From: Lophium mytilinum
Lineage: Eukaryota
DNA length: 64,000 nt
NCBI GenBank assembly: GCA_010093605.1
Contig: MU004182.1
Location: forward strand, 591,032-655,031
Reading direction: 5' to 3'
In this document: one piece after another, positions 42,482 to 64,000 of the stretch
How positions within the stretch are numbered: position 1 is the first letter of the stretch
How the letters are laid out: each line of letters opens with the position of its first letter
Translations under genes and position numbers: made by a program
Notes under the pieces: generated by a model
Database searches by the model: none
Seen by the model: only the letters and a program-made list of their open reading frames with translations
Told to the model about the DNA's origin: nothing

Positions 42482-43040
42482 TTTTGTGTGAGCTCTATTG
42501 ATGAGAAGCGGACTTCAGAAAAGTTATTCAACGTTAAGAGCGCTCTCCACGTGTATTTTCAAATCCACCGTTTACCTGTGCTTGGAAAAATTACTTTGGG
42601 GACAGACCGGGTGGTAGGATACTCCGAGTTCCGAAAGGCGGATTATCTACACGGGAGCGATGGAGAGACGACCTTCTTCCCAAAGGGTGCAATGCGCCAA
42701 GACGGTAGACCAGTTTCGAGCGTACGTCTATCGGGTATTTAGTCGTGCATTTGAAAATTTGGCAGTGATCCGGAAAGCTGATAGTAAAGGCAGCCTTTGT
42801 CTACCCCCGGAGGACAGGGGTATCCTAACCCTAAGGCCCATTCCGACTGGCTCGGGTATATTACTAGTTACCATTAGACGCATCGCCCGAATTTTCGGGA
42901 GCACAACCGTGAGACATGCTGGCTAGCTAAATGCTCCTCTATTGGCTCCCAAGTAATTTCTTCAACTTCTTCCCTCTTTGGTCTCTGCGGCTACTTCCCT
43001 CGTCCACTACCGTCCGCCAGGCAGCAAACTTTTCCACAGA

Positions 43041-44693
43041 ATGAGTTGGGATAGCGAATATGATATCATCTGTGTTGGGTCCGGGGTTGGGGGTCTATCG
43101 GCAGCCTTGACAGGCGCACAGCAGGGTGCTAGTGTCCTTGTACTGGATAAATTTCACCTTATTGGCGGAGTGTCGGCGTTGTCTTCGGGTCAACTTTGGC
43201 CAGGTCCAACCCATCTTTCCAAGGCAGAAGGAATTGAAGACAATGACAGCGACGCACAAGCTTACATCAACCATCTCTCACAAGGCTTTTCTGATCCAGA
43301 CTTACGGGAGTCCTATCTCGCCCAATGTCGGGGGGCGATCAAGTACTTCACCGACACCATTGGCTTGGAGCTGCAAGTGATCAAAGATCTGCCCGATTAC
43401 TACTACCCAGCGGTGAAGGGCTCTGCTCCTCAGGGGCGTTTTCTCGAAATCAAACCTTTTCCAGCAACAAAACTTCCTGGGGAATGGGCCTCCAAGATCT
43501 TAACATCTCCATATGGCGACGGTTTCAGCTACGTAACCGGGAATGAATTTGTATCAATGCAGTTGAAAGGCGGAGAGCATGTCGGCACAGTCCTCCAGCG
43601 CCATGTCAAAGCAGACGAACGGACTTCCGGGGCAGGCCTAGCAGCCGCACAGGTATATGCCGCTTTACAGCGCGGAGTCAAGATTCAACCATCGACCGAG
43701 GTGGTTGACCTTGTTGTCGAAGGGGGGAGGATTACAGGAGTGATAGCACGCGATGCCTCCTCCTCCTCCACAAAACGCATTCGGGCTCGACTCGGTGTTC
43801 TTCTTGCGACTGGAGGTTATGATCTCCAGCCCAACATGGTACGCGGCTTTGACAACCTGATCAACGCCGGCAATATGACGATACCCACTATCACAGGAGA
43901 TCATCTTACTTTGGCAGCCAAAGTAGGCGCTGTTCCATATCCAGCTCATCCCTCAGCCTTGACTGCGATCTTTGTCGGATACCAAATTCCTGGTGAGATT
44001 ATTTACGGTAAACCAACCTGGCGGTTACTTCTCCCTGGAGCGCCACACTCATTCATTGTCAACTCGCGAGGTAATCGCTTCGCCAATGATTCCTTTTACC
44101 CCGATGTCTCGGCCAAAGCCGGACGCTACGATGGACAAGAACAGGGTTTGGTGAACTGGCCGGCATGGCTTGTCTTCGACCATAACTTTGTTGAAAAATA
44201 CAATCTGCTACCAGCCTACCCAGGCCAGCCATTACCTCAGGGAATCGCTGTGAGCTCAGACACGCTCCGCGGTCTGGCCGAAGTGGCAGAGATCGATGCC
44301 GACGGGCTTTTGAGCACAGCAGAACGATTCAACGGCTTCTGCAAAACCGGGGTAGATGAAGACTTCGGACGTGGATCTCTGCCATGGGGCACGATCATGA
44401 CTGGCGATTACAGCCTCCCCCATCCTAGCTTCGCCGAGCTAGCGAAGGCGCCATTCTATGCAGTCAAGCTTCATCGTGTTACCGTGGGTGTCCCAACCGC
44501 GGGTTTGCCCACCAACGGCGACGGGAGTGTCATCAGTGCGGCTGGCCATGTTGTCCCCGGCCTTTACGCCACCGGTAATTCTGCAGCGTACCGCGACTGG
44601 GGAGCTGGATATAATAGCGGGGTTGCGAATATGCGTGGAATGCTTTACGGTTATAAAGCATCCTTACATATGGTTAAAGAAGCAGGTCTGTAG
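43041..44693 (+). CDS. 3-ketosteroid-delta1-dehydrogenase (KstD)-like FAD oxidoreductase, intronless
   Basis: MSWDSEYDIICVGSGVGG, GGVSALSSGQLWPG, PDYY, LATGGY, GNRFAND, DEDFGRG, GLYATGN and GYNSG. First ATG at 43041. Confidence 0.85.
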   Translation: MSWDSEYDIICVGSGVGGLSAALTGAQQGASVLVLDKFHLIGGVSALSSGQLWPGPTHLSKAEGIEDNDSDAQAYINHLSQGFSDPDLRESYLAQCRGAIKYFTDTIGLELQVIKDLPDYYYPAVKGSAPQGRFLEIKPFPATKLPGEWASKILTSPYGDGFSYVTGNEFVSMQLKGGEHVGTVLQRHVKADERTSGAGLAAAQVYAALQRGVKIQPSTEVVDLVVEGGRITGVIARDASSSSTKRIRARLGVLLATGGYDLQPNMVRGFDNLINAGNMTIPTITGDHLTLAAKVGAVPYPAHPSALTAIFVGYQIPGEIIYGKPTWRLLLPGAPHSFIVNSRGNRFANDSFYPDVSAKAGRYDGQEQGLVNWPAWLVFDHNFVEKYNLLPAYPGQPLPQGIAVSSDTLRGLAEVAEIDADGLLSTAERFNGFCKTGVDEDFGRGSLPWGTIMTGDYSLPHPSFAELAKAPFYAVKLHRVTVGVPTAGLPTNGDGSVISAAGHVVPGLYATGNSAAYRDWGAGYNSGVANMRGMLYGYKASLHMVKEAGL

Positions 44694-44835: not shown

Positions 44836-45188
44836 CCAGAGAAACAATATGTAAAATTTATGTCTATGCCAGGCTCTACGTGCGTGAGTCGTTATGACTG
44901 GTTGAATTTATCCGCGCTAGGCGGGAGAAGAAAAATGGCAACGATAACTTCTCCCTGGGAATTGCAAGTTGAGCCTACAGACAATTTCATGCAAGCTTGG
45001 AACTCGATAACGATATCCGGGTAGTTCGATGCATTGATAAACGGAAGGAAGCTGTTCTGCCGAGGCCTGGGAGACCAGAGTAGTATAAAGCCGCCCATGG
45101 CGCCCTCGAGAGGGGTACGAATACCCTTCTACTCAGGTTCAGTACGCACGTGCAGTGTAAACAGAAAGATTTTCCTCATTAACTAATC

Positions 45189-46524
45189 ATGCCAACTCCT
45201 GTACCATTCAAAATTGCAGTACCTGAAGAGAAGCTTCGTATCTTGCATCAGAAACTTTCCCTGACTGAATTGCCGGATGAAGTACCACTCAAGAAGCCTC
45301 GAAGTCGCGGCGCGCCTCTCCGAGATGTCAAAAATCTTGTTGATTATTGGCTGCATTCCTTCGACTGGCGAGCGCAAGAGAGCAAACTCAACCAGTTTCC
45401 TCAATTCACCACCGACATAGACGTGGACAGATTCGGCACATATAACGTTCATTTCATCCATCAAAGAAGCGCCGTCCCGAATGCGATCCCATTGATCTTC
45501 CTTCATGGCTGGCCTGGCAGTTTTATCGAAGTCACCAAAATTCTCCCCGAGTTGATCCAAGGGGGCCCAAATTTCCCAGCCTTCCACGTCGTGGCCCCGA
45601 GCCTCATTGACTATGGCTTCTCCCAGGGAAATACAAAAGTGAGTAGTATTGACGTCTAGCATGTTGTTGGACTGCAACCTAAAATCACTCAAGGAAGGAT
45701 TCAACCTCGATCAACACGCAGAAGCATACCACAAGCTGATGCTAAGTCTTGGATATTCTGAATATGGTAAGTGACACTCTAGCCTATTATTCATACTTGC
45801 GTTATGCTAATAAGAGTACGCAACAGTGGCTCAGGGTGGCGACATTGGTAATTTCCTGACCAGGTTTCTAGCTCTCAAGTATCCCGAATCCTGCAAAGCC
45901 CATCATACGAACATGCCGACGCCGAATCCACCGGATCCATCCAAGCACGCAGACCTCATCGCTAAAATTGAGGCTGAAGGCGGCCTGAGCGAGGAAGACC
46001 GAAATCGGTTGGCATCCACCCAAGAACACCAGGCCGACGGAATGGGGTACTCGACGGAGCACATGACGCGGCCACAAACCATCGGATACAGTCTGACTGA
46101 CAGCCCGGTGGGCTTGCTTTCATGGATTTACGAGAAGTTAGTGGACTGGGCAGCAGATTATCCATGGACCGCTGATGAAGTCTTGACCTGGGTCTCGATT
46201 TATCGTTTCTCACGCGCAGGTTCTGCTGCTCCTCAACGCATCTACTATGACATGATGCATCGGGAACCCATGTCACTCGTTGACGTGACGGCACAGTATA
46301 TCGATGTGCCTTTGGGTACTTCGCACTTCAAAAAGGACCTTTTCCGCCTTCCATCACGCTGGGATGCTACTCTTGGTCCGATCGCTTTTCAGGCGGAGCA
46401 TGACAAGGGTGGCCATTTTGCTGCATGGGAGTGCCCAAAAGAGTTAGTCAAGGACCTACGTGACATGTTTGGCAAAGAGAGTCCAATTCATGGCTGCGTG
46501 ACTGGGCAGAGTGGCTTTACATAA
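45189..46524 (+). CDS. Microsomal-type epoxide hydrolase (EHN + alpha/beta hydrolase), 3 exons
   Basis: FDWRAQE, HGWPGSF oxyanion motif, AQGGDIG nucleophile Asp, TRPQTIGY and GGHFAAWE catalytic His. Introns 45639-45693 and 45767-45825. Confidence 0.92.
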
Positions 46525-47298
46525 GTCTGCTGGGGACGGGAAGTTCTGCGTTCGAGTCTCATCGAGATAAAGGGTCAAAATCGACAGCGTTTGACGGGAT
46601 TGGTTCCGTCAATAGACTGGAACTGCTGAAAAACTTCTACCGCTGTGCTGGTTCCATTATTATGCCGTAATGCTACTTGAGCATAAAACAACGGCAACTG
46701 CTTCAGACACTCTGCTTTACTGTATTTACTCTATGTGCATTAGATGAAACCAGAATTAGGACGATATCTCACCGGCAACGGATAAATATAGATCCTGACA
46801 CACTAATGCTCGGAGGAGGAGTACGAGGAGGGAGGAGGAAGCGATACGTATTAGCTGTGAAGCATCGACTAGGATAGTGTCAAATACCCGAAACCTAGTT
46901 TGGACACTACTGACTATCAAAGACGGACCCTTCTGATTTGACGGGAGGCTTGATTTATCCGATACCCACAGCAGACTACGAGGTTCACGTCTAGTGCTCT
47001 TCCGCCGGTAGAATCCGGGTCAGATATCATGTTCTGCACAAAGACAGAACATCATAAATGTTGATAGGATTTAATTCATAGCATGTTACGGTAAACTCGG
47101 ATGTTTCAAGCGTAAAACTTTGACGAGGTGCGTTCCTAATTCTTCCCTACCCAGTGATCGGAGAGCAATGTGAGTGTACAAAGAGCCTGTCGCCGCCGCC
47201 CCACAAGAGTTATACGCAATTCTCAAAGACTCGTATTTTCCCATATACTTGATAACGGCCTCGCTGACCGGACAGTAGAGTCAAGAGACAGTCCTACC

Positions 47299-49284
47299 AT
47301 GACCACCGACACAGCACCGTTAGCGGCAGGGAAACCGGACGTGAATGTCCTTGCGCGCAAGTACGCCGAAGAGCGCGATAAACGATATGCAGCACGAGCA
47401 GAACACCAATATCTTTCTTTGCGAGAGATCAAGGACGCCAAATTTGCGAAAGACCCCTTCGTAGACTATGAGCACGCCCGAGCCAATGAGACCGAGATCC
47501 ACGACGGAGAATTTCGGCAGTTTGTCATCATAGGCGCCGGCCACAACGGACTACTCTTTGCAGTTCGCCTGATTGAAGCTGGAATCAGCGCGGACAAGAT
47601 TCTCCTAATCGACAATGCCAGTGGGTATGGAGGAGTGTGGTACTGGAATCGCTATCCCGGCCTGATGTGCGATGTGGAAAGCTACATCTATCTACCGCTC
47701 CTCGAGGAGACTGGCTTTGTTCCCAAACACAGATACTCGTATGGAGAAGAGATTCGGACCAATGCTGAGTCGATTGCCAAGAAGTTTAACCTTCAGACTC
47801 TTTTCACCACGACTGCCACGCGAATGGACTGGGACGATGATTGTGTGGAATGGACGACCCAGGTGACTCGCGATTTTGGCCCGAATGAGGATAAGGTCGA
47901 CCTGAAGATCAAGTCTCAGTTCCTGTTTATTGCAGCTGGGCCCTTGACCGTACCAAAAATGCCCGACGTGCCGGGCTTGGACGAATACCTGGAGGCTGGC
48001 GGGCATATTTTTCACAGCGCTCGCTGGGATTATGAGCTGACGGGGGGTACGCAACAAAATCCGGAAATGACTAAATTAAGAGACAAGAAGGTGGCTGTAG
48101 TTGGCACTGCCGCAACCGCTGTTCAAGTAATTCCTGAAGTGGCCAAGTATGCCGAGAAGCTGTACGTGTGCCAACGGACGCCCTCGTACGTCGGGATTAG
48201 AGGCCAAAAGGAGACTACCCCAGACGAGTGGAAGCGTGTGGCCCGGGGTAAAGGATGGCAAGCAGCTCGAGCTGACAACTTCAATCTGCAGATTTCGAAT
48301 GACCCGGAACCCGAGAACCTTGTCGCCGATGGTTGGACAGAGACTGGAGCAAATGCTGCCTTTCAGGGCGGCAAGGGGAAATATCCCATCGTCACACCAG
48401 AGGTGGTAGAGGACCATGTCGCCTACTTTCAGCAGATGGATGTCGAACAAGCGAACAACAAACGAGCCCTGGTGGACCAAATAGTTGCGGATAAGGCCGT
48501 GGCCGAAAAACTGAAACCTTGGTATGCTGGGTGGTGTAAGCGGCCCGTCTTCAACGATAACTACCTTCCAACGTTCACGAAGCCCAACGTGCAGCTCGTA
48601 GACCTTGACGGCAAAAGTATCGAAAAATTCACAAGCAAGGGGATCGTCGCAAATGGAATCGACTACGACGTTGACATTATTGTTCTTGCTACCGGCTTCG
48701 AGCTTCTGCCCGAAGCGAGCGCATCTACACGGGCAAACGCCCCGATTCGGGGTCGGAATGGTAGACTGCTGGATGACAAGTGGAATTCGTTCGAGTTCGG
48801 CACTCTGCACGGCTACATGACCCATGACTTCCCCAATTTGTTTTTCCAGGGCGTCTTTGGGCAAGCATCATCGTCAAACTTGACTAGGCTATACGATTTC
48901 CAGGCAGAGCATTGTGCCTTTGTAGTGGAGAAGGCGCTCTCATCCGCACCGAAGGGCGAAAAGGCGATTGTCGAAACGTCCAAAGCCGCGGAAGATGAGT
49001 TCGGCCAGGAGCTCTCTAAGCGGGCAATGTTTTTCAGCGCATTGCCGCTCTGTACCCCGGGGTACTTTACGGGAGACGCACAGCTCAAGCCTCCGGCGAC
49101 TTTGGAGGAAGCCGCGCTGATGGCAAAGCGGATCCAATGGCCCGGTGGTGTTACCGATTATGGTAGACTCCTCGGTCGATGGAGGGACGCTGGAGAGTGG
49201 AAAAAGGTGATTTCCGCGAGGTCGGTCGCGCCCACGAACGGTATCGATAAGCTCACAGTTGCTGTTCTTGCTGAAAATATGTGA
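47299..49284 (+). CDS. Type I Baeyer-Villiger monooxygenase (cyclopentadecanone MO / PtlE-like long N-terminus clade), intronless
   Basis: KYAEERDKR N-terminal extension, GAGHNG, GGVWYWNRYPGLMCDVESYIY, GHIFHSARWD fingerprint, QRTPS, LKPWY..WCKRP and CTPGY. Confidence 0.9.
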   Translation: MTTDTAPLAAGKPDVNVLARKYAEERDKRYAARAEHQYLSLREIKDAKFAKDPFVDYEHARANETEIHDGEFRQFVIIGAGHNGLLFAVRLIEAGISADKILLIDNASGYGGVWYWNRYPGLMCDVESYIYLPLLEETGFVPKHRYSYGEEIRTNAESIAKKFNLQTLFTTTATRMDWDDDCVEWTTQVTRDFGPNEDKVDLKIKSQFLFIAAGPLTVPKMPDVPGLDEYLEAGGHIFHSARWDYELTGGTQQNPEMTKLRDKKVAVVGTAATAVQVIPEVAKYAEKLYVCQRTPSYVGIRGQKETTPDEWKRVARGKGWQAARADNFNLQISNDPEPENLVADGWTETGANAAFQGGKGKYPIVTPEVVEDHVAYFQQMDVEQANNKRALVDQIVADKAVAEKLKPWYAGWCKRPVFNDNYLPTFTKPNVQLVDLDGKSIEKFTSKGIVANGIDYDVDIIVLATGFELLPEASASTRANAPIRGRNGRLLDDKWNSFEFGTLHGYMTHDFPNLFFQGVFGQASSSNLTRLYDFQAEHCAFVVEKALSSAPKGEKAIVETSKAAEDEFGQELSKRAMFFSALPLCTPGYFTGDAQLKPPATLEEAALMAKRIQWPGGVTDYGRLLGRWRDAGEWKKVISARSVAPTNGIDKLTVAVLAENM

Positions 49285-49954: not shown

Positions 49955-51809
49955 ATGTCCTTGACTAGGCTGCGGCAGCCCCGACCAATACTCTCTTTCA
50001 AGCGTGTACGGGTACCTGTTGCATTATTTAGGCAAAAACGGAGCGCATCCGGGCAGCCCGTAGGCAATCCCTTTCCATCTCTGCACTGCTCATTGCGGAT
50101 CAGGTCTGACATGGCCATCTTAGTCCTCTCAGGATCTCAAAAGCTATGATGTCGTAGTGGTGGGTTCCGGCTGTGCTGGACTCAGTGCCGCGGTTGTAGC
50201 AGCGAAGTACGGCTTGAAAGTTCTTGTTGCGGAAAAAAGTAACTACTTTGGAGGCACTACCGCATACTCACTTGGTGGAGCATGGATCCCCGTAAACAAA
50301 TACCAGAAGGTACTCGGAATCGAAGACAATGTCCAAAAGGCCGATGGGTACATTCGGCTGGTTCTGGAAGACCTGTACAACGAGAAGAAGGTCAAGGCAT
50401 TTTTGTCCAGCGCTCCAGAAATGGTAGAATGGATGGAGGCCAATTCTGCCATGCAGTTTGCGCCCATGCCTATCCCTGATTATCATGTGGCGAAAGAAGG
50501 AGCTTCTGTTGGCCGAACAGTCTCGGTCGAGGCCTTTGACGGACGACTTCTGGGTCGGCAAACCCTGAGGGATGTGAGATATACTCTCCAGGGCTTTCAT
50601 GCCTTTGGCTCCATGCAAGCTAGACCATGGGATATTCCGATGTTGACCAACCCTTTTGGCAGCTGGAGCAACTTTCACTTTGCGACCAGCAAATTCGTCA
50701 GATACGTGTTTGACGTGCTGCGGTATGGGAAAGGATCCGAGCTGTGCAATGGCAACGCAATCATCGGTCGTTTACTGCACGCTTGCAAAGAAGCCGGTGT
50801 CGACCTGCGCAAGAACTCCCCGGTCCTAAGAACAGTGCTAGACGAGAAGAGAAGGGTTAGCGGTGTTATGATTGGACTGGGTGATAGCGATGCTACGGAG
50901 CAGATACACGTCAATCGGGGCGTGGTACTCGCCAGTGGAGGATTCGGCCGGTCCAAAGACGCCAGGAAATATCTACCTCACGACTGGTCAGCTTGCCCCA
51001 AGCATAACGTGGGCGACGGGAACCGCATCGGCATTGAAAGCGGCGCGGTGATGCCTCCACCAAATCCAGACAACGGAATCTACGCGCCACTTTCTCTGCT
51101 AAGCAAGAAGACAAAAAAGGGCCATCAGGTCTGGCGATATCCGCACTTTTCGCAGGACAGAGCCAAACCAGGGGCGATCATTATCGGACAAGATGGACGC
51201 CGTTTTGCCAACGAATCCAAGCCGTATCAAGAGTTCGTCAGGGACATGCACGCAAAAGGCATCGAAAAGGCATATTTGATCGCCGATCGGCCGTTTCTGC
51301 GCAAGTACGGCATGGGCATGGGCTTGCCCGCACCATATCCCGTTCGACACTTCATTCGAAACGGATATATCATAGAGGCTCCTGATCTTCAGACGCTTGC
51401 CGCCAAGATTGGGGTACCTGTCAACACCTTGTCTCAAACGGTCTCTAACTGCAACAAATATGCCACGGAAGGGAAAGACCCCGAATTTCACCGCGGAGAG
51501 AACGCTTATGATCTGATGCTTGGAGATCCCAACACAGGACTGCCAAATCCAACTCTTGGTCTTTGTGTTAAAGCGCCTTTCTATGCACTGCCACTTTACC
51601 CGGGCAATGTTAGCACTGTATATGGCCTTTCCACGGATGAAAATGCTCAGTGTCTGGATAAAGAGGGCAAGCCGGTCTCAGGTCTCTATGCCGTGGGCCT
51701 CGATCAGAATTCAGTCATGTGTGGGACCTATCCTGGGGGAGGGTCCAGTATTGGGCCAGCAATGACTTTTGGGTATCGCGCGGGAATGCATATAGCTGGG
51801 GAAATATAA
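49955..51809 (+). CDS. KstD-like FAD_binding_2 dehydrogenase with N-terminal mitochondrial-type presequence exon
   Basis: Exon 49955-50059 (MSLTRLRQPRPILSFKRVR...) splices via GTAGGC..CTGAC..AG in frame to YDVVVVGSGCAG. Motifs GGTTAYSLGGAWIP, PDYH, GRRFANE, DPEFHRG and YPGGGSSIGPAMTFGY. Confidence 0.85.
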
Positions 51810-52510
51810 TTTTATAATTTAGGATGCCCCAATGTCCCAGTGGGAACACATAGCGTTCCAAGTCCTACTGATACTGATACATCATGAGAAAGATATGAGA
51901 AGTACCAAATTGAAACTAGCAATATAGTACAAGTGTATATCATCACGTGATGTACCGCTCAAACCGCAGTTTCGAAAGGGCATTTCGAAACCACGTTTCT
52001 GCAAGTAGAGATCCTTCGTTGATATGGCTAGATTGTGTAGAACCGGGGTGAAGCTCGCGATTATCTTCGTAAGGCTGAAAAGTCGCCCAAACAGGCCACT
52101 TTCTTGGAAACGGTGCCTGGCGCTCCAATTCGCTGGCCCGCCACGAGTCCGAAGGTCCGAGCTGGATATGGATGTTAATTCTCTGGGTATTTTGTCGGTT
52201 TCGATGGCAAAATCGGAGGGTCGAAATTCTCCGGGTAATTATCTGGTTTCTTGTTCCGAACAGCCATGGAGGTCGCGATCTTGACTTTGCGAAGCATAGT
52301 ACACCGCCCACGGCAAACAAGTGCGGACAGATGATCGATTTGATACCGAGATTTGAGTGTGGCATTCCAAGTCCCACAAGTCCCGCTCCCAGTTGAACAG
52401 CGTCCTTTGCACGTTCACATCCTACGTGAAAAACATCAGCTTGGCCTGCTCCCAGGTTTGACCAATTCCCGTCACCCATAATCTCACAAGCCTTTCTACC
52501 ATTAAAAGAA

Positions 52511-53434
52511 ATGTCTACTCATCGTTACGCGGCAAAAGGTGCCTTCAAGGGCCGTACAGTCCTCATCACCGGCGGTGGTGGTGCTATTGGTAGAGCCGCT
52601 TCGTTAGCTTTTGCCGACGCAGGTGCAAATGTGGTGGTGAATGATCTTCCAGGCAAGACAGGTGAAGGGCCAGCGGAGCGTACGGTCAAGGAGGTCAAGT
52701 CACGCGGAGGATCAGCTATCGCGGTACCTGGAAGCTCGGCGGAAGGCGAAAAGCTCGTGGACGCTGCGATCAAGGAGTTCGGTCGCATCGATGTCATCGT
52801 GGCCCTTGCAGGTACGCATGCAGCCACGCTGTTCGAAAATCATACCATGGACGACTTCAATCGGGTGCTCGGGGTCAACACTCTTGGGATGATTTCTCCC
52901 GTTCTAGCAGCGTGGCCACACTTCCAGAAGCAAAAATATGGACGTATCGTTATCACCACGTCCGACACCATCTTTGGCACCACAAGACTCACTTCGTATC
53001 TCTTCTCGAGAGGCGCCAACTTCGTCGGGGCTCGCGGGCTTGCGATAGAGGGCGCGGAACACGGCATACTGGTCAACTCGATCGCGCCCGTAGCTGCCTC
53101 CGCCTTGTCTTTCGATTATATCAAGGATATGGAACCTGAAGTAAGGACACAATACGAGGATCAGTTGCGCAGCAAGTTCCCACCGGAAGGGAATGTACCC
53201 ATGATCCTCGCTTTAGCTCATGAGTCAAGCGCAATAACGGGGGAGTCTTTCAGTCTTGGGGCCTATTGTGCGTCAAGGATCGTGCTCGGCTTCCAGGACG
53301 GTGTGACCAATGTGCGTACCATGGAGGAGATTTTTGAACGGAAAGACGAAATACTGGGATCTCCAGACAAGCAGGTCAAAATTCCAACGAGCAGTGACGA
53401 GGAGATGCAGATGCTTCAGCGAGCCCAGTTGTAA
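52511..53434 (+). CDS. SDR related to the peroxisomal MFE-2/17-beta-HSD4 dehydrogenase domain, intronless
   Basis: TGGGGAIG, GANVVVND, AWPHFQKQKYGRIV and GILVNSIAP. Catalytic motif reads YLFSR. Ends -AQL (PTS1-like). Confidence 0.85.
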   Translation: MSTHRYAAKGAFKGRTVLITGGGGAIGRAASLAFADAGANVVVNDLPGKTGEGPAERTVKEVKSRGGSAIAVPGSSAEGEKLVDAAIKEFGRIDVIVALAGTHAATLFENHTMDDFNRVLGVNTLGMISPVLAAWPHFQKQKYGRIVITTSDTIFGTTRLTSYLFSRGANFVGARGLAIEGAEHGILVNSIAPVAASALSFDYIKDMEPEVRTQYEDQLRSKFPPEGNVPMILALAHESSAITGESFSLGAYCASRIVLGFQDGVTNVRTMEEIFERKDEILGSPDKQVKIPTSSDEEMQMLQRAQL

Positions 53435-54332: not shown

Positions 54333-55163
54333 ATGCTGCATAGCTTGAAATTCGAGGAATACAAGGATGCCTTTCGCTATCTCACTCTCCGACGAGAAAA
54401 TGGTATCCTCGAGGTTAGAATGCATTACAATGACGGTCCAGCCAAATGGTCGGGATATGATGTGTCTCTGCACTCAGAACTTCCGGAGCTGTTTCAATGC
54501 GTCACCAAGGACCCTGAAAACAAAATTATGATCTTTACCGGCACCGGACACGAGTTCCTCGCGGAATGGGATCGAACCGATGAGACTGAGGTCCTTGTCT
54601 CACCACAACAATGGCATCGACTTTACAAGGATGGGAAAGAGCTCATTCACTGGTTCTTGGACATTGAAATCCCCATCATTGCCGCGGTGAATGGAAAGTG
54701 TTTCATTCATCCTGAGCTACCAACTCTCTGTGACGTTGTGATTGCCTCAGAGACTTCGGTTTTTGCGGACAAAGCACACTTGACGGACACCCGGGCCGTT
54801 CCTGGAGATGGATCACACGTTTGGTGGCCGATGCTGCTTGGACCCAATCGCGGCCGCTCATTTCTCATTCTCGGAGAAGAGATCCCAGCAGCAGAAGCAA
54901 AGACACTCGGGTTTGTGGCTGAAGTTGTCCCCCAGGATGCTGTGTTGGATCGTGCTTGGGAAATTGCTCGCACACTCATCACCCACGACCCTCTGGTGCT
55001 GAAGTACACCCGGATCTCCCTGACCCAGCATATGAAACGGCGGTTCCTCGACGACCTAGGCTACGGCTTGGCACTTGAAGGATTGGGCATTTTGTCTCTG
55101 GCACAGAACGCATCGAAGAGCAAAGGATGGAGCTTTAGCTTACCAAGTGGAACATCGGGATAA
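54333..55163 (+). CDS. 6-oxocamphor hydrolase-like beta-diketone hydrolase (crotonase superfamily), intronless
   Basis: Colinear with Rhodococcus 6-oxocamphor hydrolase as recalled: F.EY...L.R..G.L, W, H.EL, D.ENK..I.TGTG, IE.P.IAAVNG, HPE, D..H, VPGDG.HV.WP..LG.NRGR.FL, RAWE.AR and DL..GLA.E. Confidence 0.85.
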   Translation: MLHSLKFEEYKDAFRYLTLRRENGILEVRMHYNDGPAKWSGYDVSLHSELPELFQCVTKDPENKIMIFTGTGHEFLAEWDRTDETEVLVSPQQWHRLYKDGKELIHWFLDIEIPIIAAVNGKCFIHPELPTLCDVVIASETSVFADKAHLTDTRAVPGDGSHVWWPMLLGPNRGRSFLILGEEIPAAEAKTLGFVAEVVPQDAVLDRAWEIARTLITHDPLVLKYTRISLTQHMKRRFLDDLGYGLALEGLGILSLAQNASKSKGWSFSLPSGTSG

Positions 55164-55649: not shown

Positions 55650-56793
55650 CTAAGAGCTTGCGTATAGTTTTTGAAGCACGTCCTTCACCGTCAACGGCTT
55701 AATCTCCGGAAACTCTGCGTTCAGATCCAGACTTCCTTGTTCTGGGTGCAAATTGAACGCTCCTCCATCAAACCATAGACCGAACACCGCGAAAACGAAC
55801 TGGAGTTGCTCCTTGGGGAAATATGGGTAGACTGGGACATGTGCAGGAAGCTCCGTAATCTGTCCCTTCTGAAGTGACTCAATTGAGTCGTACTGGACGT
55901 TGAACTTGACCCCTAGATTATGGCAACAGCTATTAATAAAGGCATCACCCAGGATCTGGAATGGATTCTTCAAGGGCTCTTTCTGGCTTACCTTTGGTCT
56001 TCTCCGCCAGAGCAACGAAATCATTCCAAGTGATTTTGTCACCAATCGTGTAGCTATCAGGCTTCCACTTGGCAATGTCGAGGAGCTTGGAGACATAGCG
56101 AGCGACATCTGTCGTGTGGGTGAATGCGACGGGAGTATTTCCCTCACCCGGGATACCAGCGGTGTTGTTGTTGAGATCGAGCACTATAGTAGTGGGCTGA
56201 AGAAACGACTCTATCTTCGGTATTCCGAAGTAGTCCAAGAAGAAGCCACAGTTGACTCGGGTGTGTTCAAGGGTGGACTTCTTGAGCTTGGACAGCACCT
56301 CAAGTTTCAAGCCGGCTGGTGGAAACAGCTGTCCCTGTCTAACAGCAAAGGCTTCATGAGCACAGGCGGCGTCACTTCACCATAGAGGAAAAAGGTGGCA
56401 AAAGGGCACTCACTCTTCCGTATACGCTATTCCCCAGGAGCTTGGTATGAATCTCTTTGTGTACGAAGAGGCCTCAGCGGCCGAGACCAAGTTGATCTCA
56501 GCTTCGTTGGAGGTGAGCACAGCAAGAGTCGAGATAACAGTCTCGATGCCGTGGGATTTGAGTACATCTTCCAAAGATGCTGTATCCGTATAGTCGACTT
56601 GTACTACAGGAGCGCCTTGTACACTTTCCGCCGACGACTGTGCATTTTATCAGTGCGCCGAACCATGTCTTATCAGGATAGCATTCTATACCTTTCTGCT
56701 CAAGATCACAACCTTTTTCCCATCTGCAACGAGAGCCTGGACAATGGCTCGTCCGATTCCACCAGTGCCACCAGCCACCGCAATGGTCGCCAT
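55650..56793 (-). CDS. NmrA-like/isoflavone-reductase family NAD(P)-binding protein, multi-exon
   Basis: MATIAVAGGTGGIGRAIV start, RFIPSSWG, LEHTRVNCGFFLDY, FTHTTDVARYV and FPEIKPLTVKD. Confidence 0.85.
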
Positions 56794-58597
56794 TTCCGCT
56801 TTGTTTTCTAACTGATCGAGGATGAAATATCTGTATCTCTTTCTCTCACGCTTTCGTTAGTGACTTTGAGTAGGTACTTTCCGAGAGAGGGCGTTTAAAG
56901 CTGCAGTAAATATGGACTTGTTGGCAAGTGAGCAAAATGGCTAGCCTATGGTGTGATTTGCAATACACTCTGTGCCGTTCGAATCTTTTCCTACGCTCGC
57001 CGGCGAATGCTGGGTGCGTCAAGCACCCGCGCGGCCATTTCAGGGTTTCGGGTCGGAAGACACTGTAAAAACCCGTTTGGTGGACCGTATGGCCAGCAAT
57101 GGCGGATGATCATCGTATCACGTGAGTACCACTCCAGTCGCTGCAAGCGCACATGCTAGAGTTGCTGACCCAGATTCTTTTCCCATATGCAGTACCACAG
57201 AAGTGTCACACATAGAAGCTAGTTGAAATCGCGTAACTGGCCAGCCTGATCAGAGTTCTTGGTGTTATAATCTCTTCATCACTCCGACGCATCAACATGC
57301 GTAATATCTTCTTCTTGACGAAAGTCAGTTCCATCGTCCGTGCCGTACTTGGCGTTGAAACGGAGACTTTCAAGCGTTTCAAGTTTTCGTGGATGTATTC
57401 GTCCAATGTACTGACCTCTTCGCCAGAGTGGTAAGTGAGTGTGAGCGATGCTCGTAACCACGACGAAGGACCTGAAAGAGGCTCTCGATGCCGCACTTGA
57501 TGCGTTCAAAACCTAAAGTCAGATTCCACTCGGAAGGAAGGCGTAAATGCACTGGAACAGTTCTCATGCTTGGGTATTTTGTATTTGTGGTTTGCCTACG
57601 ACTCAGCCGGGACTGGCCTGGAAACCTCATTTAACTCCTTTCATAAAGTTCCCGGAAACAAGATATACCTCAAGATTCGCTGATAGTGAAATCAATCGTG
57701 AGTTTGAAGCTACCTAAAAGCAAGTCGAAATGCACCAACGAGAGATCTCTACACTAACGCCAATACGATCGGTGCCGCTTTCACAGATCTCCCTATAAGC
57801 TCTCCTGGGGATCATAGTCACGCCGTCACCTTTCACTCACGCTCTATGCTGTCCATACAACCGTGGATAGATATGATTGAAGCCATGAAGCGTGTTAATG
57901 CCTCCTTGATGGCCCTTGGTGCGAGCGTCTGGTGCAAGGACATAAAACGAGCGAATGGGAAGGCCAGTCAATTGAATGCAGGATACTTTTTCATTAATCG
58001 CGCGGAAACGCTGAAGATTCGTGCTCCCTTTGGCGAGTTCAAAACAATCAAAGCTCATGGCAGCGAATAACCCAATTTTTGGGGAAACAGAGCCTAGACG
58101 AGATTGCGAAGATCGATAACGAGCTTAGGTTTTTCCAAGCTGGACGAGAGAAAGTCAAGAGTGACCTTGCGCGTACTCCTAGCTGGCGCTGTGAGTTCTT
58201 GATTGGGAACTGAGTAGCTGTACCAATTTTTTCCGAACAATCCGTTCATGTTCGTCCATCCGGCTCGATAGGCGCAATGCCGTGCCGAGAAATCTGACCC
58301 TTGTCCACCACTGGCATCGTCTTCGCAACAGCTCATCCGGCTTCGGCACATGTTCCGGCAACTTGCGTTACATCTTGCTGACCAGTGGATGACAAGGTGG
58401 CACCCCGATCTGGTCTCTCCTAGCGTCCCATATGCACTCCGGTCTTACAGTGAAAGGTACTCCGGAGGAAGTTGCATGCAACACTGATAAAACCTCTCAG
58501 GGTGACATTACTACCAGCCTAGAGTTCTGCCACCTGCCTGCTTTCTGGTCTTGTAAGATTGATTCTAGTCGGTATCCATCTTCCTTCTATCAAGAAA

Positions 58598-60850
58598 ATG
58601 GGCTCCATTCCTCCCAGTGAGCTGCGAGTGCCGTCTAATCCGGGGGAGCGGGCCATCAATGACTATCGCCCGATCAAGGCCATATGCATTGGTGCTGGTA
58701 TGAGTGGTATAACTGCAGGCTGCATGCTTCCACAGAAAATCCCTAATTTAGAGCTCGTCATATACGAGAAGAACGACGATGTCGGCGGGGGGTGGTACGA
58801 GAACCAGTGAGTCGAAAGCCAAAAATGGTCATGGCTATTCTTGACTGACCAGACACTCAGTTATCCTGGAGTACAGCCTGGTAAGAGCGACATCGTCCCA
58901 CACGCGTTCAGTTCGCGTATCGAGCATTGACTGATGCGAGCAAGATTTGACGCCGCATACGTACCAATACACATTTGCCAGCAATCCTCGCTGGAGCCGG
59001 TTCTACCCTCCTGGACGCGAATTCGAGCATTATCTGAAGGTGGTAGCGAAGAGATTTGGGGTTTATGATCGGACCAAGTTCCGCCACAAGTTTTTGACCG
59101 CGAGATGGATCGAGGATGATGGGCAATGGGAGGTGGAGGTTCTTCGTCTCGACGACAACGTCGTGAGTCAAATCAATCTCCAGTCTCAACGCTTGTCCAA
59201 AGCAGCAGACTGATGTTTCTTTCTCCATCTAGGTGGTCAGAGACCGGGCAGAGGTTCTCATCAGGTGTATGGGTCTGGTGAATGACTGGAGATTTCCCGA
59301 CATCCCAGGGCGACAAGATTACCAGGGCAAAATGATACACACGGCTAGATGGGATGACTCGTATGATGTCACTGGAAAGCGGGTGGCAGTCATCGGCTAT
59401 GGTGCCACTGGGGTTCAGATCATGCCGGCAATCCAGCCCTTAGTCAAGTCTGTCGACCACTACGTACGCGGTCCATTCTGGATAGCGCCGGCCGGCGGAA
59501 CGGCGATGGAGGAAATTCTCGAACGTGGAGAGCGGTTGAACTGTAAGTGTTTCCGCCCCCCTTATGGTCGTCGCGCAGCCTTCGATTGACCAAATGTGAA
59601 AAGTCGATCATCCGGCCGAGGAAATCGAGAAATTCTCCGAAAAGCCACTCACGTACTTGACCTATCGCAAAAAGATCGAACATCTGTGTAACGGGTATCA
59701 AGCCGGGTTGATGAGGGACACTGAGGCTCATGCGCAGCTCCACGCCATAATTGAGGCCAACATGAAAGCGACGTTGGCGCCAAAAGAGGGCTATTTTGAA
59801 CTCCTAAAACCTGAATACGAGGTCGGTTGTCGCCGGTTGGTCATGGGTCAGCGTTGGATGGAAGCGCTCGTTCAACCCAACGCCACTCTCTTCAAATGCG
59901 ATATTGCTCGCTTCACCAAGGAGGGAATCGAGCACCCGGATGGAACCATTCGAGAATATGATGCCATCATATGTGCGACCGGCTTTGACACGTAAGCAAA
60001 ACCACCAAAGACTAGCAAGCACGCTTTTCATTACGTTCATGAGCACGGCTGACAAGGATTTGCAAAGTAAACTCGACAACGCGAATACTCCGATTCTTGG
60101 ACAAGGTGGCATCACACTCGCCGAACAATGGGATCCCGAACCCGTCGCGTATCTCTCTGTTGCGGTGCCAAAGTTCCCCAACATGTTCCAGCTATTCGGC
60201 CCCAATTCGGCCCCAGTGGCTGGCTCAATCTGCCATACAATGGAGGGCGCTTGTGGCTTTGTTATTAAATCAATTTTGAAGCTCCAGCAAGAATATCTCA
60301 AGTCCATTGTCGTCAGGTTAGTTGGCCGTAGTTGTTTTCTGCATTCCTTTCTCTTTCCGCCGCCTTCTCTACTACTACCTTGTGGAACTGTTTCTAACGA
60401 GAGTGCGATTGTAGCCCAAGAGCGGCGCAAGACTGGATGAACCAGGTCGACTACTGGACCAGTAAAACTGTCATTTCAGGGACGGTGAGTAACGCAATGC
60501 GAAGCGTATTTCATTATCTGTCTAGTATGTGGAATGATGCCTGCTTCTAACACAAAGGATTTTGCCAGTGTCGTACATGGTTCAAGCGGAACATCGAGAA
60601 AGGTCGATCCATTATCAACTGGCCAGGCTCGGCCATGCATGCCTACCGTGCATGGAGCAACCCTCGATGGGAAGATTTTGAATACGAGTCGTGGCTGCCA
60701 GAAGGCCAATCACTGCGTTGGATGGGGAACGGCATGACCTACTCTGAACAGCATGGAACTGATACCACCGATTACATGTCATTCACCGATGAAGCGACTG
60801 TTCTTACGGAAGAAGACTTCAAGGCTGTTGAGGACAAACTCACCAAGTGA
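58598..60850 (+). CDS. Flavin-binding monooxygenase/BVMO (StcW-like), multi-exon
   Basis: IGAGMSG, GGGWYEN-YPG, fingerprint YQGKMIHTARWD, IGYGATG, GCRRL, ATGFD, FPNMF..GPN and PRWEDFEY. Many short introns. Confidence 0.88.
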
Positions 60851-61995: not shown

Positions 61996-62545
61996 ACTGA
62001 CAGCAGTCACTATATAAGCAGACCAGTAGGTGCGAGACGTAGACACAAGTATACGAGAGAAAGTAACGCTATTGCAGCGAATATGAATATATCTTTGTAG
62101 CGTACCGCACGTCTAGGGTTCTACGCGGTCTATTTATCGCTAAAATGACATCAGTAGCTCCCTGGCGACGAGCTCCCAAAAAATCAGTGGTCCTCATTGA
62201 TGTTTCAGCTTCCCGCCCACCTTCCTTGGGGGGTACCGGAACGGGACTCTAATATGTCATATGAGAAAGAGGGAAGAGCAGACTGCGACAATCCGGATAA
62301 ACTTGCGTCCCGTAGATCCCAACGAGGCTGGAAAGCCTGAAGTTGCTGATCTCGGCATTCCTTCTCTGAGTTCGCGCTGTCACAGGATGGATGCCCCGGA
62401 TACGTCTCTTCGTTTGTTCATTGGGCTAGGCTCCTTCCAATCCCCTCAATCTAGATTATAATATGAAATGATCGCCCCAGGCCCAGCCCCGTCCCAACCG
62501 AAATTTTGATCCGTCTCTTTTCGCACTCCAAACAGTAACTGGACC

Positions 62546-64000
62546 ATGGCGACCCAATACAGCGATGAGTATGATGTCGTCGTTGCCGGATCTGGAATTG
62601 GTGGTCTTTCAGCCGCCATCACCGCCGCCGAGCGAGGTGCGCGTGTTCTCGTAGTAGAAAAGCTCGATAAGCTGGGAGGGGTCACCGCATTGTCGTCTGG
62701 AGTATTATGGCCAGGACCCAATTCGCTTTCAGAGAGCTTGGGCTTTGAAGACTCAGTTGAAGAAGCCCAAGCATATATGAACACGATTACGCGCGGCTTG
62801 GCCAAGGAGGACCTGAAGCTGGGATATCTCGCTAGGAGTCGTGAAGCCATTCAATACTTTACCGACAAGATTGGGGTTGAATTACAGGTCATTCGAGGCG
62901 TGCCAGACTATTATCACCCGTCTGTCCAAGGTTCCAAGGTCGAGGGGCGCTTTCTGGAAAGCAAGCCTTTTTCTGGCAAGCGCTTGGGGATGTGGACTGA
63001 CAAGGTGCTCACCTCACCATATGGACCCGCCTTCAGCTATGTCACAGGCACAGAATGGGCTGCGTCGCAGACCGGTAAGGCGAACATCGTCGAGAGCCTT
63101 CAACAGCACGTCCAGGAAGATGAACGCTGTGGGGGCGCTGGATTGTCGGCCGCCCTCGTCTACGCCGCGCTCCAGCACAACGTGGAGTTTCGGACTTCGA
63201 CCGCGCTCGCGGATTTGATTGTGGAAGATGGAAGAGTTGTAGGAGTGCTTATTGAACCAGTGGCGTCCTCGTCAGGGGGGGATGGGGTTACGAATGACAC
63301 TACGAAAGGAACTGGGAATCATGAAAAAGCACTTCGGCTGCAAGTACGGCAAGGAGTAGTTATGGCAATAGGGGGTTACGATTGGCGAAAGGATCTAGTA
63401 CAGGCATTTGACGGACTGAAGGAGTGTTCCACCATGGTGCCACCTACAATCACCGGAGACCACATCGTCATGGCATCAAAGGTCGGTGCTATTCCGATCC
63501 CGGCACGACTTCCAGGCCAAAGTCCTATATTCGTCGGGTATCGCGTTCCAGGAGAGGTCATCTTTGGGTATCCGTCATCACGTTTATTACTGGCAGGCGC
63601 TCCCCACAGCATTATCGTGAATCGAAAGGGGCTCAGATTTGCGAACGACGGCTTTTATCCCCACGTTGTCGAGCAGGTTACCCGATATGGCAGCCAGATG
63701 ACACACATGCCCAATTGGCCCGCCTGGCTGGTGTTCGACCAGAGCATGCTCGACAAGTATGGTTTGGCACCGACCTATCCTGGACAGCCACTTCCCGAAG
63801 GCCTTGCCATACAGGCCGATAGCATCAAAGAGCTTGCTGAGCGCGCTGGCATTGACTCAACCGGTCTGAGCGAAACTGTGGACCGATACAACGGCTACTG
63901 TGAAACAGCCACGGACCCTGAATTTGGCCGCGGCACGTATCCCTGGTCTGCAATTATGGTGGGCGACTATCGATTGAGGAACCCCAACATGGCAGAGCTT
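62546..64000 (+). CDS. KstD-like FAD oxidoreductase, paralogue of 43041-44693; runs off the window end
   Basis: Open frame from ATG 62546 with no stop before 64000, hence absent from the ORF track. Motifs EYDVVVAGSGIGG, GGVTALSSGVLWPG, PDYY, LTSPYG..FSYVTG, PTITGDH, GAPHSIIVN, NWPAWLVFD and DPEFGRG are all shared with the 43041 protein. Confidence 0.9.
   Translation, partial: MATQYSDEYDVVVAGSGIGGLSAAITAAERGARVLVVEKLDKLGGVTALSSGVLWPGPNSLSESLGFEDSVEEAQAYMNTITRGLAKEDLKLGYLARSREAIQYFTDKIGVELQVIRGVPDYYHPSVQGSKVEGRFLESKPFSGKRLGMWTDKVLTSPYGPAFSYVTGTEWAASQTGKANIVESLQQHVQEDERCGGAGLSAALVYAALQHNVEFRTSTALADLIVEDGRVVGVLIEPVASSSGGDGVTNDTTKGTGNHEKALRLQVRQGVVMAIGGYDWRKDLVQAFDGLKECSTMVPPTITGDHIVMASKVGAIPIPARLPGQSPIFVGYRVPGEVIFGYPSSRLLLAGAPHSIIVNRKGLRFANDGFYPHVVEQVTRYGSQMTHMPNWPAWLVFDQSMLDKYGLAPTYPGQPLPEGLAIQADSIKELAERAGIDSTGLSETVDRYNGYCETATDPEFGRGTYPWSAIMVGDYRLRNPNMAEL

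Follow-up and report, generated by a model that had tools for sequence, protein, structure and literature searches.

The open reading frame described here raises two questions, namely, which reaction its product (P0001) catalyzes and how it came to lie among the redox genes that surround it in the window, by which we mean the whole stretch of 64,000 nucleotides that was analyzed. The frame begins at the first ATG past an in-frame stop and ends with TAA. In phmmer alignments, its product matches two bacterial enzymes, ABDH (residues 17 to 261) and OCH (residues 7 to 254), end to end with gaps of at most 3 residues, so that no intron is needed; a preliminary description of this DNA had proposed an intronless 276-residue crotonase-fold frame, and this proved correct. 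A tblastn search found no second copy in the window, returning the gene itself and one 44-residue match at chance level. The gene is transcribed. RNA-derived contigs from two runs cover parts of the frame without any joint (X1, 90 to 99% alike; X2, 99% or more), and both runs contain the spliced form of a 75-nt intron (56339-56413) in the neighboring NmrA-like gene, with the joint 56338>56414 present in X1 and a loose end of X2 matching 56318-56338. Within 50000-56500, only the stretches covered by contigs of X1 or X2 count here; uncovered stretches and a third run, X3, in which no contig matched, carry no weight. Transcripts from the region are present in a wood-decay metatranscriptome. Since the GC3 of the gene (0.54) matches that of its neighbors (0.51 to 0.60, versus 0.70 to 0.89 for bacterial homologues) and the neighboring genes have introns, it is not contamination. 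These introns, a gene for a Zn2Cys6 factor in the window, and Capronia epimyces as the closest named relative (in an 89% cluster) also back the earlier designation of P0001 as a fungal homologue; the last of these points to a black yeast of the Chaetothyriales type.

Among solved structures, the best phmmer match to P0001 is ABDH (Alr4455 of Anabaena, PDB 2j5g/2j5s; 42 to 43% identity and an E value of 3.6e-62 for 2j5g), followed by OCH (CamK) of Rhodococcus sp. NCIMB 9784 (PDB 1o8u/1szo; 38 to 40% identity and 3.9e-53 for 1o8u). The best CoA-dependent crotonase comes next at 9.6e-17, a gap that excludes a chance resemblance to OCH and ABDH. The AF2 model (pLDDT 86, pTM 0.85) has the ClpP/crotonase fold. 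Superposition on OCH, suggested as a check in the preliminary description, gave an rmsd of 1.6 to 1.7 Å over ~250 residues (1.6 to 1.8 Å with ABDH included; TM-target 0.94 to both 1o8u and 2j5g). The first 11 Foldseek matches are all OCH/ABDH chains (TM-target 0.92 to 0.95, rmsd 1.6 to 2.1 Å, E ~1e-26), and those after them stand at ~1e-16; in both searches P0001 is thus closer to OCH and ABDH than to any CoA-dependent crotonase. Its Pfam family is ECH_1 (1.7e-22), and its relatives are annotated publicly as "enoyl-CoA hydratase." P0001 stays below the cutoff of every NCBIfam model. The best, NF005595, scores 98.6 bits against a required 292, which rules out membership in the EchA15 group; crotonases of that type (PDB 3q1t, 3qk8, and 7m3w) are the next-best structures (E ~1e-16 to 1e-15) and have been proposed as possible beta-diketone hydrolases (PMC3584854). 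Sequence and modeled fold together place P0001 in the OCH/ABDH branch of the crotonase superfamily, probably as a beta-diketone hydrolase that needs no CoA, with a predicted activity and substrate, and the assignment to this C-C hydrolase subfamily rather than to the enoyl-CoA hydratases thus holds up. P0001 differs from OCH in having a fungal host and ~20 extra disordered C-terminal residues (pLDDT <50). It falls in another subclade than ABDH, for which we know of no natural substrate, and its bacterial relatives at 50 to 56% identity are much closer. Because its identity to the two characterized enzymes is just 38 to 43%, its substrate range may differ from theirs.

The active site points in the same direction. 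Six OCH residues were previously listed as present in P0001, whose translation contains AKW, LHSEL, HPE, DKAH...VPGDG, and LALEG, and all six can be aligned: W39, H47, H126, H149, D159, and E249 of P0001 correspond in the phmmer alignment to W40, H45, H122, H145, D154, and E244 of OCH, a protein of similar length. Across 28 relatives of P0001, W39 is at least 90% conserved and the other five are invariant. The set comprises the His/Asp dyad (H145/D154 in OCH and H144/D153 in ABDH), present as H149 and D159, and the auxiliary residues H47, H126, E249, and W39; we take H122 and W40 of OCH to have auxiliary roles in its active site. The catalytic residues of ABDH, H43, H144, D153, and E243 (PMC3584854), align with H47, H149, D159, and E249. 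Tables in the same paper equate E164 of ECH with ABDH H144, by which the second catalytic Glu of enoyl-CoA hydratase is replaced by H149 in P0001; judged at this second position, P0001 lacks the Glu pair of enoyl-CoA hydratase proper. By analogy with OCH and ABDH, the H149/D159 dyad would activate a water molecule for attack on one carbonyl of a 1,3-diketone, and retro-Claisen cleavage, assisted by H47, H126, E249, and W39, would give a keto-acid, so that the C-C bond would be hydrolyzed without CoA.

The neighborhood of the gene contains four genes for KstD-like flavoproteins, three for BVMO/FMO-like proteins (one of them PockeMO-like), two for SDRs, and one each for a P450 and an epoxide hydrolase (Table 1). 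KstD-like flavoprotein c has as its best PDB match the 3-oxosteroid 1-dehydrogenase 7p18, a Sterolibacterium enzyme (4.2e-84), with all of its NCBIfam matches under their cutoffs. Flavoprotein b reaches 288 bits with the 3-ketosteroid-delta1-dehydrogenase model (cutoff, 789), and the Baeyer-Villiger monooxygenase reaches 459 bits with the PtlE-type model (cutoff, 1100). The epoxide hydrolase gene, which probably has one intron judging from its two open frames, matches by tblastn the contiguous epoxide hydrolase of a bacterial locus, L081. The SDR encoded next to P0001 matches a (3R)-hydroxyacyl-CoA dehydrogenase (2et6, 1.1e-62) and 17beta-HSD4 (3.4e-38) and is a candidate partner for oxidizing a beta-hydroxy to a beta-keto group. 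Pfam scans of open frames, which could miss small or heavily spliced genes and covered frames of at least 70 aa at 28 to 39.3, 40.9 to 42.95, and 55.2 to 62.5 kb plus selected long frames elsewhere, found no PKS, NRPS, or terpene cyclase near P0001, that is, no core synthase of a fungal secondary-metabolite biosynthetic cluster. The region looks catabolic.

Table 1. Genes in the vicinity of P0001, with positions in the window
Feature	Position	Strand	Basis or remarks
Second FMO/BVMO-like flavoprotein gene, in pieces	28826..30839	+	Pfam NAD_binding_8 and FMO-like
Cytochrome P450 gene with introns	36414..38446	-	Pfam p450 3.7e-22 and 3e-15, separate frames
FAD_binding_2 flavoprotein a (flavocytochrome c/KstD superfamily)	39317..40897	+	Pfam 1.1e-45; NCBIfam
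Second SDR gene, in pieces (introns)	41338..42442	-	Pfam adh_short_C2 3.3e-16 and adh_short 6.4e-08, separate frames
KstD-like FAD flavoprotein b	42957..44693	+	Pfam FAD_binding_2 2.1e-49
Epoxide hydrolase, two open frames (45183-45659 and 45814-46524)	45183..46524	+	Pfam EHN 1.7e-38
Type I Baeyer-Villiger monooxygenase, PockeMO-like (open frame)	47158..49284	+	PDB 5mq6 2e-154
KstD-like FAD flavoprotein c (cyclic-ketone alpha,beta-desaturase family)	50124..51809	+	Pfam FAD_binding_2 3.2e-74
SDR dehydrogenase, MFE-2/17beta-HSD4 type (open frame, start not fixed)	52430..53434	+	Pfam adh_short 2.6e-27
P0001, probable OCH/ABDH-type crotonase-fold beta-diketone hydrolase	54333..55163	+	276 aa, intronless; sequence and model
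NmrA-like NAD(P)-binding protein gene	55653..56845	-	Pfam NmrA 6.4e-06
Third FMO/BVMO-like flavoprotein gene, in pieces	58523..60437	+	Pfam NAD_binding_8 and FMO-like (weak), successive frames
KstD-like FAD flavoprotein d, runs off the window	62510..64000	+	Pfam FAD_binding_2 9.9e-40; NCBIfam

The best explanation, to which we assign a probability of roughly 0.6, is that P0001 is a hydrolase of the OCH/ABDH type, derived from bacteria, that opens cyclic 1,3-diones among enzymes of ring-ketone redox chemistry. In the camphor pathway, OCH acts after a P450 hydroxylase and a dehydrogenase. P450 and SDR genes are found in the window as well, although P0001 has KstD-like and BVMO genes as neighbors where OCH has the camphor operon. 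In the proposed sequence, the P450 would introduce a hydroxyl group beta to a ketone; alternatively, desaturation by a KstD-like enzyme would produce an enone for subsequent hydration, with no hydratase for the latter route evident in the window. The adjacent 17beta-HSD4/MFE-2-type SDR would then oxidize the resulting beta-hydroxy ketone, giving a cyclic 1,3-dione whose ring P0001 would open. From the gene neighborhood, it is plausible that P0001 provides the ring-opening step of the cluster, and we infer that it cooperates with the neighboring genes and acts on an alicyclic terpenoid or steroid-like compound.

It is also conceivable, if unlikely, that the neighborhood is coincidental and that P0001 is an OCH-type hydrolase working independently on other natural beta-dicarbonyls, such as linear beta-diketones or the acyl-cyclohexanedione or triketone extractives of wood and plants. 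The transcripts in decaying wood are in keeping with this, and so is the distribution of the linkage in related fungi, as read from NCBI locus tags and contigs. In Capronia epimyces, A1O3_00978 and A1O3_00981, the latter an orthologue of flavoprotein c, are on the same 4,994,026-bp contig. In Cladophialophora psammophila and C. immunda, however, the best listed homologue of flavoprotein c and the homologue of the hydrolase are on contigs of different length, and Fusarium nygamai and F. agapanthi have no row among the 120 flavoprotein c matches listed; linkage of the hydrolase and KstD-like genes is therefore shown for the Capronia group only. The contexts of bacterial homologues likewise vary, with TonB receptors, sulfotransferase-family genes, and a carboxylic acid reductase-like gene among them. 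Against coincidence stands the adjacency of an SDR, which is kept in the window and across bacteria: an SDR lies within 1.5 kb of the homologue in 30 of the 59 bacterial loci with enough flank, and SDR density, counted over loci that are related to one another and not independent, falls from 1.90 per 10 kb close to the homologue to 0.45 per 10 kb at distances above 3 kb (~4-fold). The families of the window (BVMO, epoxide hydrolase, and FAD_binding_2) also recur beside bacterial homologues at L001, L049, and L081. A BVMO is adjacent to the homologue at L001 and found alongside it at L081, where an epoxide hydrolase lies 3 nt downstream and a FAD_binding_2 gene is present too. Other alcohol oxidoreductases occur as an abutting GMC gene (L059) or as the next gene (PQQ-ADH at L049 and Zn-ADH at L001), and L001 has an Amidohydro_2 gene three genes downstream of the OCH-like gene.

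To our knowledge, only two members of the CoA-independent OCH/ABDH branch have been characterized, and both are bacterial. No publication on a eukaryotic one was found, consistent with the preliminary description, and the origin of P0001 was addressed by phylogeny. In a careful maximum-likelihood tree (65 rows), a single clade (UFBoot/SH-aLRT, 100/99) unites the 10 fungal-type rows, 9 of which are fungal going by their names or near kin and 1 of which has no name. This clade sits several nodes deep (95/87 and 100/97) among successively branching bacterial and metagenomic rows, the latter mostly without a taxon label, and the 47-row clade that encloses it (95/87) includes Sphingobium and Porticoccaceae sequences; support for its bacterial sister grouping is low (57/70). 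A quick tree of 94 rows agrees in nesting the fungal rows among bacteria. Fungal names account for 4 of the 120 P0001 matches listed, with only five fungal species named among the matches listed, and the nearest Atlas clusters are 94 to 100% Bacteria. The bacterial homologue loci have bacterial flanks (TonB receptors, IclR, AraC, and RNase E; coding fraction, ~1; GC, 0.61 to 0.67). A search of genome contigs with P0001 alone returned 34 loci at no more than 48% identity, mostly from a distant Bacillota-type group, and a metagenome search with alignment A1 returned at least 80 loci at 43 to 56% identity, with no close fungal contig among the 80 listed. A bacterial origin of the gene is thus supported by the nesting of the fungal clade among bacteria and the mere five fungal species named among the matches listed, and the donor was probably of the proteobacterial type.

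Horizontal acquisition had been proposed from the outset, and the nested clade upholds this as regards bacterial origin but not as a recent event in this genome. The gene is fully ameliorated, with GC3 like that of its neighbors, and on this compositional evidence the transfer is old, being common to Cladophialophora and two Fusarium species. The ancestor of P0001 would have passed from bacteria into ascomycete fungi and later become compositionally fungal, and in the Capronia lineage the gene now lies among genes for ring-ketone redox enzymes. The missing compositional trace could also be expected of an anciently fungal gene, inherited vertically and lost from nearly all fungi, as could the monophyly of the fungal rows and an AU test in which constraining the Chaetothyriales rows together, relative to Fusarium, was not rejected (P = 0.083). 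We consider this history improbable. The fungal clade is nested deep inside the bacterial rows and is not their sister, and the few fungal species named for P0001 contrast with ~37 fungal names, from many orders, among the 120 matches listed for neighboring flavoprotein c. The broad, vertically inherited fungal crotonase clade that would have spoken for such a history was not found. Separately, co-transfer of the adjacent SDR with P0001 was ruled out, as this SDR is just 30 to 37% identical to those neighboring bacterial homologues and its nearest structures are eukaryotic MFE-2/17beta-HSD4 enzymes.

Certain crotonases that act when bacteria break down steroid rings C and D open beta-keto-acyl-CoA rings. 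P0001 might in the same way act on a CoA thioester, opening, by hydrolysis or retro-Claisen cleavage, the ring of a beta-keto-acyl-CoA supplied by the MFE-2-type SDR, whose best structure is a hydroxyacyl-CoA dehydrogenase; the ECH_1 family of P0001 and the database names of its relatives would suit such a role. This is quite improbable given that the two CoA-independent enzymes are nearest by ~40 orders of magnitude, that P0001 keeps their full His/Asp/His/His/Glu set, and that Pfam scans of open frames, with the coverage given above, found no CoA ligase or CoA transferase in the window. That P0001 serves fatty-acid metabolism as an ordinary enoyl-CoA hydratase/isomerase, the role implied by ECH_1 and the public annotations, is very improbable indeed, with ordinary hydratases reaching no better than 1e-16 where ABDH reaches 1e-62, a His at the second catalytic Glu position (by the PMC3584854 equivalence), and the best NCBIfam score far below its cutoff.

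As a bacterial-derived hydrolase, P0001 and its small fungal clade extend the OCH/ABDH family to eukaryotes. Fungi are known mainly to decorate terpenoids and steroids, and the KstD-like, Baeyer-Villiger, SDR, P450, and epoxide hydrolase neighbors make P0001 a testable candidate for fungal carbocycle cleavage. A bolder and rather doubtful proposal is that the Capronia lineage opens the rings of alicyclic or steroid-type ketones hydrolytically, by a route that arose when a bacterial OCH-type hydrolase was grafted into a native fungal cluster for ring-ketone oxidoreductases; KstD-type desaturation or P450 hydroxylation would come first, an HSD-type oxidation would then yield a cyclic 1,3-dione, and retro-Claisen hydrolysis would follow. 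If true, this would offer a first genetic entry to how fungi cleave, rather than simply decorate, the carbocycles of such compounds, and it would be a crotonase-based parallel in eukaryotes to the 2,3-seco ring-A cleavage of bacteria, for which a nonhomologous amidohydrolase is used. SRAH of Sterolibacterium denitrificans, described in PMC11780191 as an amidohydrolase-2 family enzyme, would be a functional analogue of P0001 under the steroid ring-opening reading only. For black yeasts, 109 candidate catabolic gene transfers are reported in Cladophialophora immunda (PMC5595782), to which P0001 would be a concrete addition; CLAIMM_00103, 00104, and 00105 are absent from one supplementary file of that paper. 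Finally, OCH is known for desymmetrizing prochiral diketones (title of Grogan 2001, cited in PMC11780191), and P0001 may be useful in the same application.

The hydrolase gene (P0001) is a single forward open frame of 276 codons that runs from the first ATG past an in-frame stop to a TAA. The preliminary description had taken its product for a homologue of the Rhodococcus 6-oxocamphor hydrolase (OCH) with an intact active site, and the motifs that it quoted are all found in the translation. When we compared the protein with all PDB chains by phmmer, the best match was the Anabaena beta-diketone hydrolase (ABDH; 2j5g; E = 3.6e-62), followed by OCH itself (1o8u; 3.9e-53), both CoA independent; the top CoA-dependent crotonase reached 9.6e-17. 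In the phmmer alignments, W39, H47, H126, H149, D159, and E249 correspond to W40, H45, H122, H145, D154, and E244 of OCH. The ABDH catalytic residues named in PMC3584854 (H43, H144, D153, and E243) fall on H47, H149, D159, and E249 after a 10-residue chain-tag offset. Across 28 aligned relatives, H47, H126, H149, D159, and E249 never vary, and conservation of W39 is 90% or higher. From this alignment, AlphaFold2 gave a model with a mean pLDDT of 86.1 and a pTM of 0.85, in which only the last 13 residues had a pLDDT below 50. Superposing such a model on OCH had been proposed as a check, and Foldseek placed OCH and ABDH chains alone in ranks 1 to 11 of the PDB (TM-target, 0.92 to 0.95; rmsd, 1.6 to 2.1 Å), with the next crotonases ten orders of magnitude worse in E-value. 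The preliminary observation is fully confirmed. Pfam recognized only a generic ECH_1 domain, and no NCBIfam model reached its cutoff (best, NF005595, with 98.6 bits versus 292). By every sequence and structure criterion that could be tested, the protein belongs to the OCH/ABDH branch, with beta-diketone hydrolysis as its predicted activity. It differs from both enzymes in sequence (38 to 43% identity), in a disordered 20-residue tail, in its eukaryotic host, and in its gene neighborhood. A full-text search, with subscription journals largely outside its reach, turned up no published member of this type from fungi or any other eukaryote. Among the database relatives, P0150, P0152, P0183 (515 to 524 aa), and P0162 (765 aa) aligned with the query over two or three distinct segments and apparently consist of two or three OCH-like domains fused in tandem.

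To the hydrolase query, a word-indexed protein search returned 6857 candidates, 5847 of them at an E-value of 1e-10 or better. Among the best 120, which were listed, four relatives were 82 to 91% identical and one was 66% identical. The four organism-named rows in this list were all fungal (Cladophialophora immunda, 60%; Fusarium nygamai, 58%; C. psammophila, 57%; F. agapanthi, 55%), and the rest were metagenome proteins of ~250 aa with 49 to 57% identity. Named members of the metagenome-type group are bacterial (Porticoccaceae and Sphingobium fontiphilum), the three nearest Atlas clusters are 94 to 100% Bacteria, and an exhaustive search of 50%-identity representatives gave 183 clusters at 1e-30 or better. 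The annotated metagenomic homologue loci are unmistakably bacterial, with a coding fraction of ~1 and a GC content of 0.61 to 0.67, and carry TonB-dependent receptors, IclR and AraC regulators, and RNase E. As a control, the best 120 matches of the neighboring KstD-like gene included ~37 with fungal names, drawn from many orders, and 2 with bacterial names. We built two maximum likelihood trees, a quick one of 94 rows and a more careful LG+C20 PMSF tree of 65 rows, from which 9 distant loci and 20 representative rows with long branches were left out. Both trees unite the 10 fungal-type rows (9 fungal by name or close kinship, plus P0006) in a single clade (100/99), which is nested in larger clades of 47 rows (95/87) and 54 rows (100/97) with bacterial and metagenomic members; the node joining the fungal clade to its immediate sister had a support of only 57/70. 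Inside the fungal clade, C. psammophila grouped with the two Fusarium species (99/91) and C. immunda with the Capronia set (97/94), and an AU test did not reject a tree with the Chaetothyriales rows constrained together (p = 0.083). The gene has a GC content of 0.51 and a GC3 of 0.54, compared with a GC3 of 0.51 to 0.60 for its neighbors and 0.70 to 0.89 for six bacterial homologues. Patchy occurrence in fungi, nesting among bacteria, and full amelioration argue for an old bacterium-to-fungus transfer, so that the horizontal acquisition suggested earlier is well supported as an old event. Within fungi, the later history of the gene may involve loss or passage from fungus to fungus. Transfer from bacteria to black yeasts has been published (PMC5595782; PMC11898892); the hydrolase gene was not found in the accessible text of these articles, nor the C. 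immunda locus tag in the one supplement file at hand.

The hydrolase gene is today an ordinary gene of its fungal host and is transcribed. Capronia epimyces CBS 606.96 A1O3_00978 belongs to its 89%-identity cluster, and the window also carries intron-split genes, a 9-kb AT-rich stretch, and a Zn2Cys6 transcription factor, the sole regulator recognized there; the analysis read these features as those of a Chaetothyriales-type ascomycete. Contigs matching the locus came from two RNA-derived runs: 70 from a wood-decay metatranscriptome (X1), 90 to 99% alike, and 4 from a second run (X2), 3 of them 99% or more alike. They overlie parts of KstD-c (the KstD-like flavoprotein gene c), the SDR gene, the hydrolase frame, and the NmrA-like gene. 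Cover of the hydrolase frame by the contigs shown is partial (X1, 54313-54653 and 54776-55004; X2, 54665-54894), and no joint was reported within the parts spanned. In the NmrA-like gene, an X1 joint excises 56339-56413 (GT..AG on the minus strand), and a loose X2 end at 56414 fits 56318-56338 with one mismatch; both runs therefore contain spliced transcripts, from this locus or from a closely related one.

Features of the window, called from open frames by Pfam, PDB, and NCBIfam searches or from base composition
Feature	Position	Strand	Remarks
AT-rich stretch	1-9000		~9 kb; GC 0.26-0.33 vs 0.47-0.62 elsewhere
SBF-like transporter	9683-11014	+	Pfam SBF_like, 7.5e-89
Zn2Cys6 transcription factor	17438-18574	+	Zn_clus and Fungal_trans
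FMO/BVMO-like gene	28.8-30.8 kb
P450	36.4-38.4 kb	-
FAD_binding_2 flavoprotein a	39.3-40.9 kb (39317-40897)
SDR	41.3-42.4 kb	-
KstD-like b	43.0-44.7 kb (42957-44693)
Epoxide hydrolase	45.2-46.5 kb
BVMO	47.2-49.3 kb		Best structure PockeMO 5mq6, E 2e-154
KstD-like c	50.1-51.8 kb (50124-51809)	+	Best structure 3-oxosteroid 1-dehydrogenase 7p18, E 4.2e-84
SDR	52.4-53.4 kb		Closest to MFE-2 and 17beta-HSD4
Hydrolase	54.3-55.2 kb (54333-55163)	+
NmrA-like gene	55.7-56.8 kb	-
Aldehyde dehydrogenase fragment	57708-58067	+	Isolated 120-aa frame; matches only profile positions 374-439
Third FMO/BVMO-like gene	58.5-60.4 kb
KstD-like d	62510 to window end (64000)

Among the open frames scanned, no PKS, NRPS, or terpene cyclase was found, so the region has the look of an island for the catabolism or biotransformation of ring ketones and not of a biosynthetic cluster. 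Four FAD_binding_2/KstD-like genes, each one long open frame, lie inside 25 kb; their family is widespread in fungi at 50 to 60% identity, with a few bacterial members at ~50%. The aldehyde dehydrogenase frame could be a gene remnant or a single exon of a spliced gene. The transporter, of the sodium/bile-acid symporter superfamily, is ~20 to 25 kb to the left of the closest redox genes, and a steroid- or acid-type transporter close to a KstD-rich region may be noteworthy. The AT-rich stretch looks like RIP-degraded repeat DNA flanking the gene-rich part. In C. epimyces, the KstD-c orthologue (A1O3_00981; 82% identity) follows the hydrolase orthologue by three locus tags, on a contig of equal length, and relatives of both genes have as their longest contig a JGI one of 231,680 bp, which is suggestive only. 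The listed KstD-c homologues of C. psammophila and C. immunda are on contigs that differ in length from those of their hydrolase homologues, and F. nygamai and F. agapanthi have no row among the KstD-c matches listed; linkage is therefore established for the Capronia group only.

Bacterial contexts were surveyed by tblastn of 14 window frames against 114 fetched loci, followed by Pfam annotation of seven loci picked by length or tblastn matches rather than at random. The hydrolase homologue abuts an SDR gene in L036 and a GMC oxidoreductase gene in L059, sharing the boundary base in each. L081 has a BVMO, then FAD_binding_2 and SnoaL genes, then the hydrolase, with an epoxide hydrolase 3 nt after it; L049 has a TonB receptor, hydrolase, PQQ-ADH, SnoaL, and KstD-like gene. 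L044 carries an SDR, a small ORF, and the hydrolase with a P450 nearby; L042, a carboxylic-acid-reductase-like gene, hydrolase, MFS transporter, and SDR; and L001, a BVMO, hydrolase, Zn-ADH, SDR, amidohydrolase-2, and luciferase-type monooxygenase. With five SDR queries, and with 26 distant Bacillota-type loci (L009-L034) excluded, an SDR lay within 1.5 kb of the homologue in 30 of the 59 loci whose near flank measures 2 kb or more, and SDR density per 10 kb was 1.90 near the homologue versus 0.45 beyond 3 kb. Since the loci are mutually related, this count reflects conserved synteny and not independent events.

The fold, the residue set, and the recurring partnership with alcohol dehydrogenases are shown by the analysis. 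If the enzyme works as OCH and ABDH do, its His149/Asp159 dyad would activate water for attack on a 1,3-diketone carbonyl, and retro-Claisen C-C cleavage would then yield a keto-acid. Gene context suggests that the diketone is cyclic and that the adjacent SDR may make it from a beta-hydroxy ketone, which could arise through P450 hydroxylation or through a KstD-like desaturase giving an enone that is then hydrated. The first route has the order of the Rhodococcus camphor pathway, in which P450 hydroxylation precedes oxidation by a dehydrogenase. [quoted passage not shown] In a minor alternative, the pathway would work on CoA esters, the kind of compound on which the nearest structural relatives of the adjacent SDR act. 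Ring opening within a ring-ketone redox island is a plausible role for the hydrolase; on the boldest reading, fungi would cleave the carbocycles of terpenoid or steroid ketones by a hydrolytic route of this kind. In addition to its BVMO and OCH-like genes, which adjoin each other, L001 carries an Amidohydro_2 gene (4175-5308, plus strand), and since this is the family of SRAH, two unrelated diketone-hydrolase families may occur in one operon.
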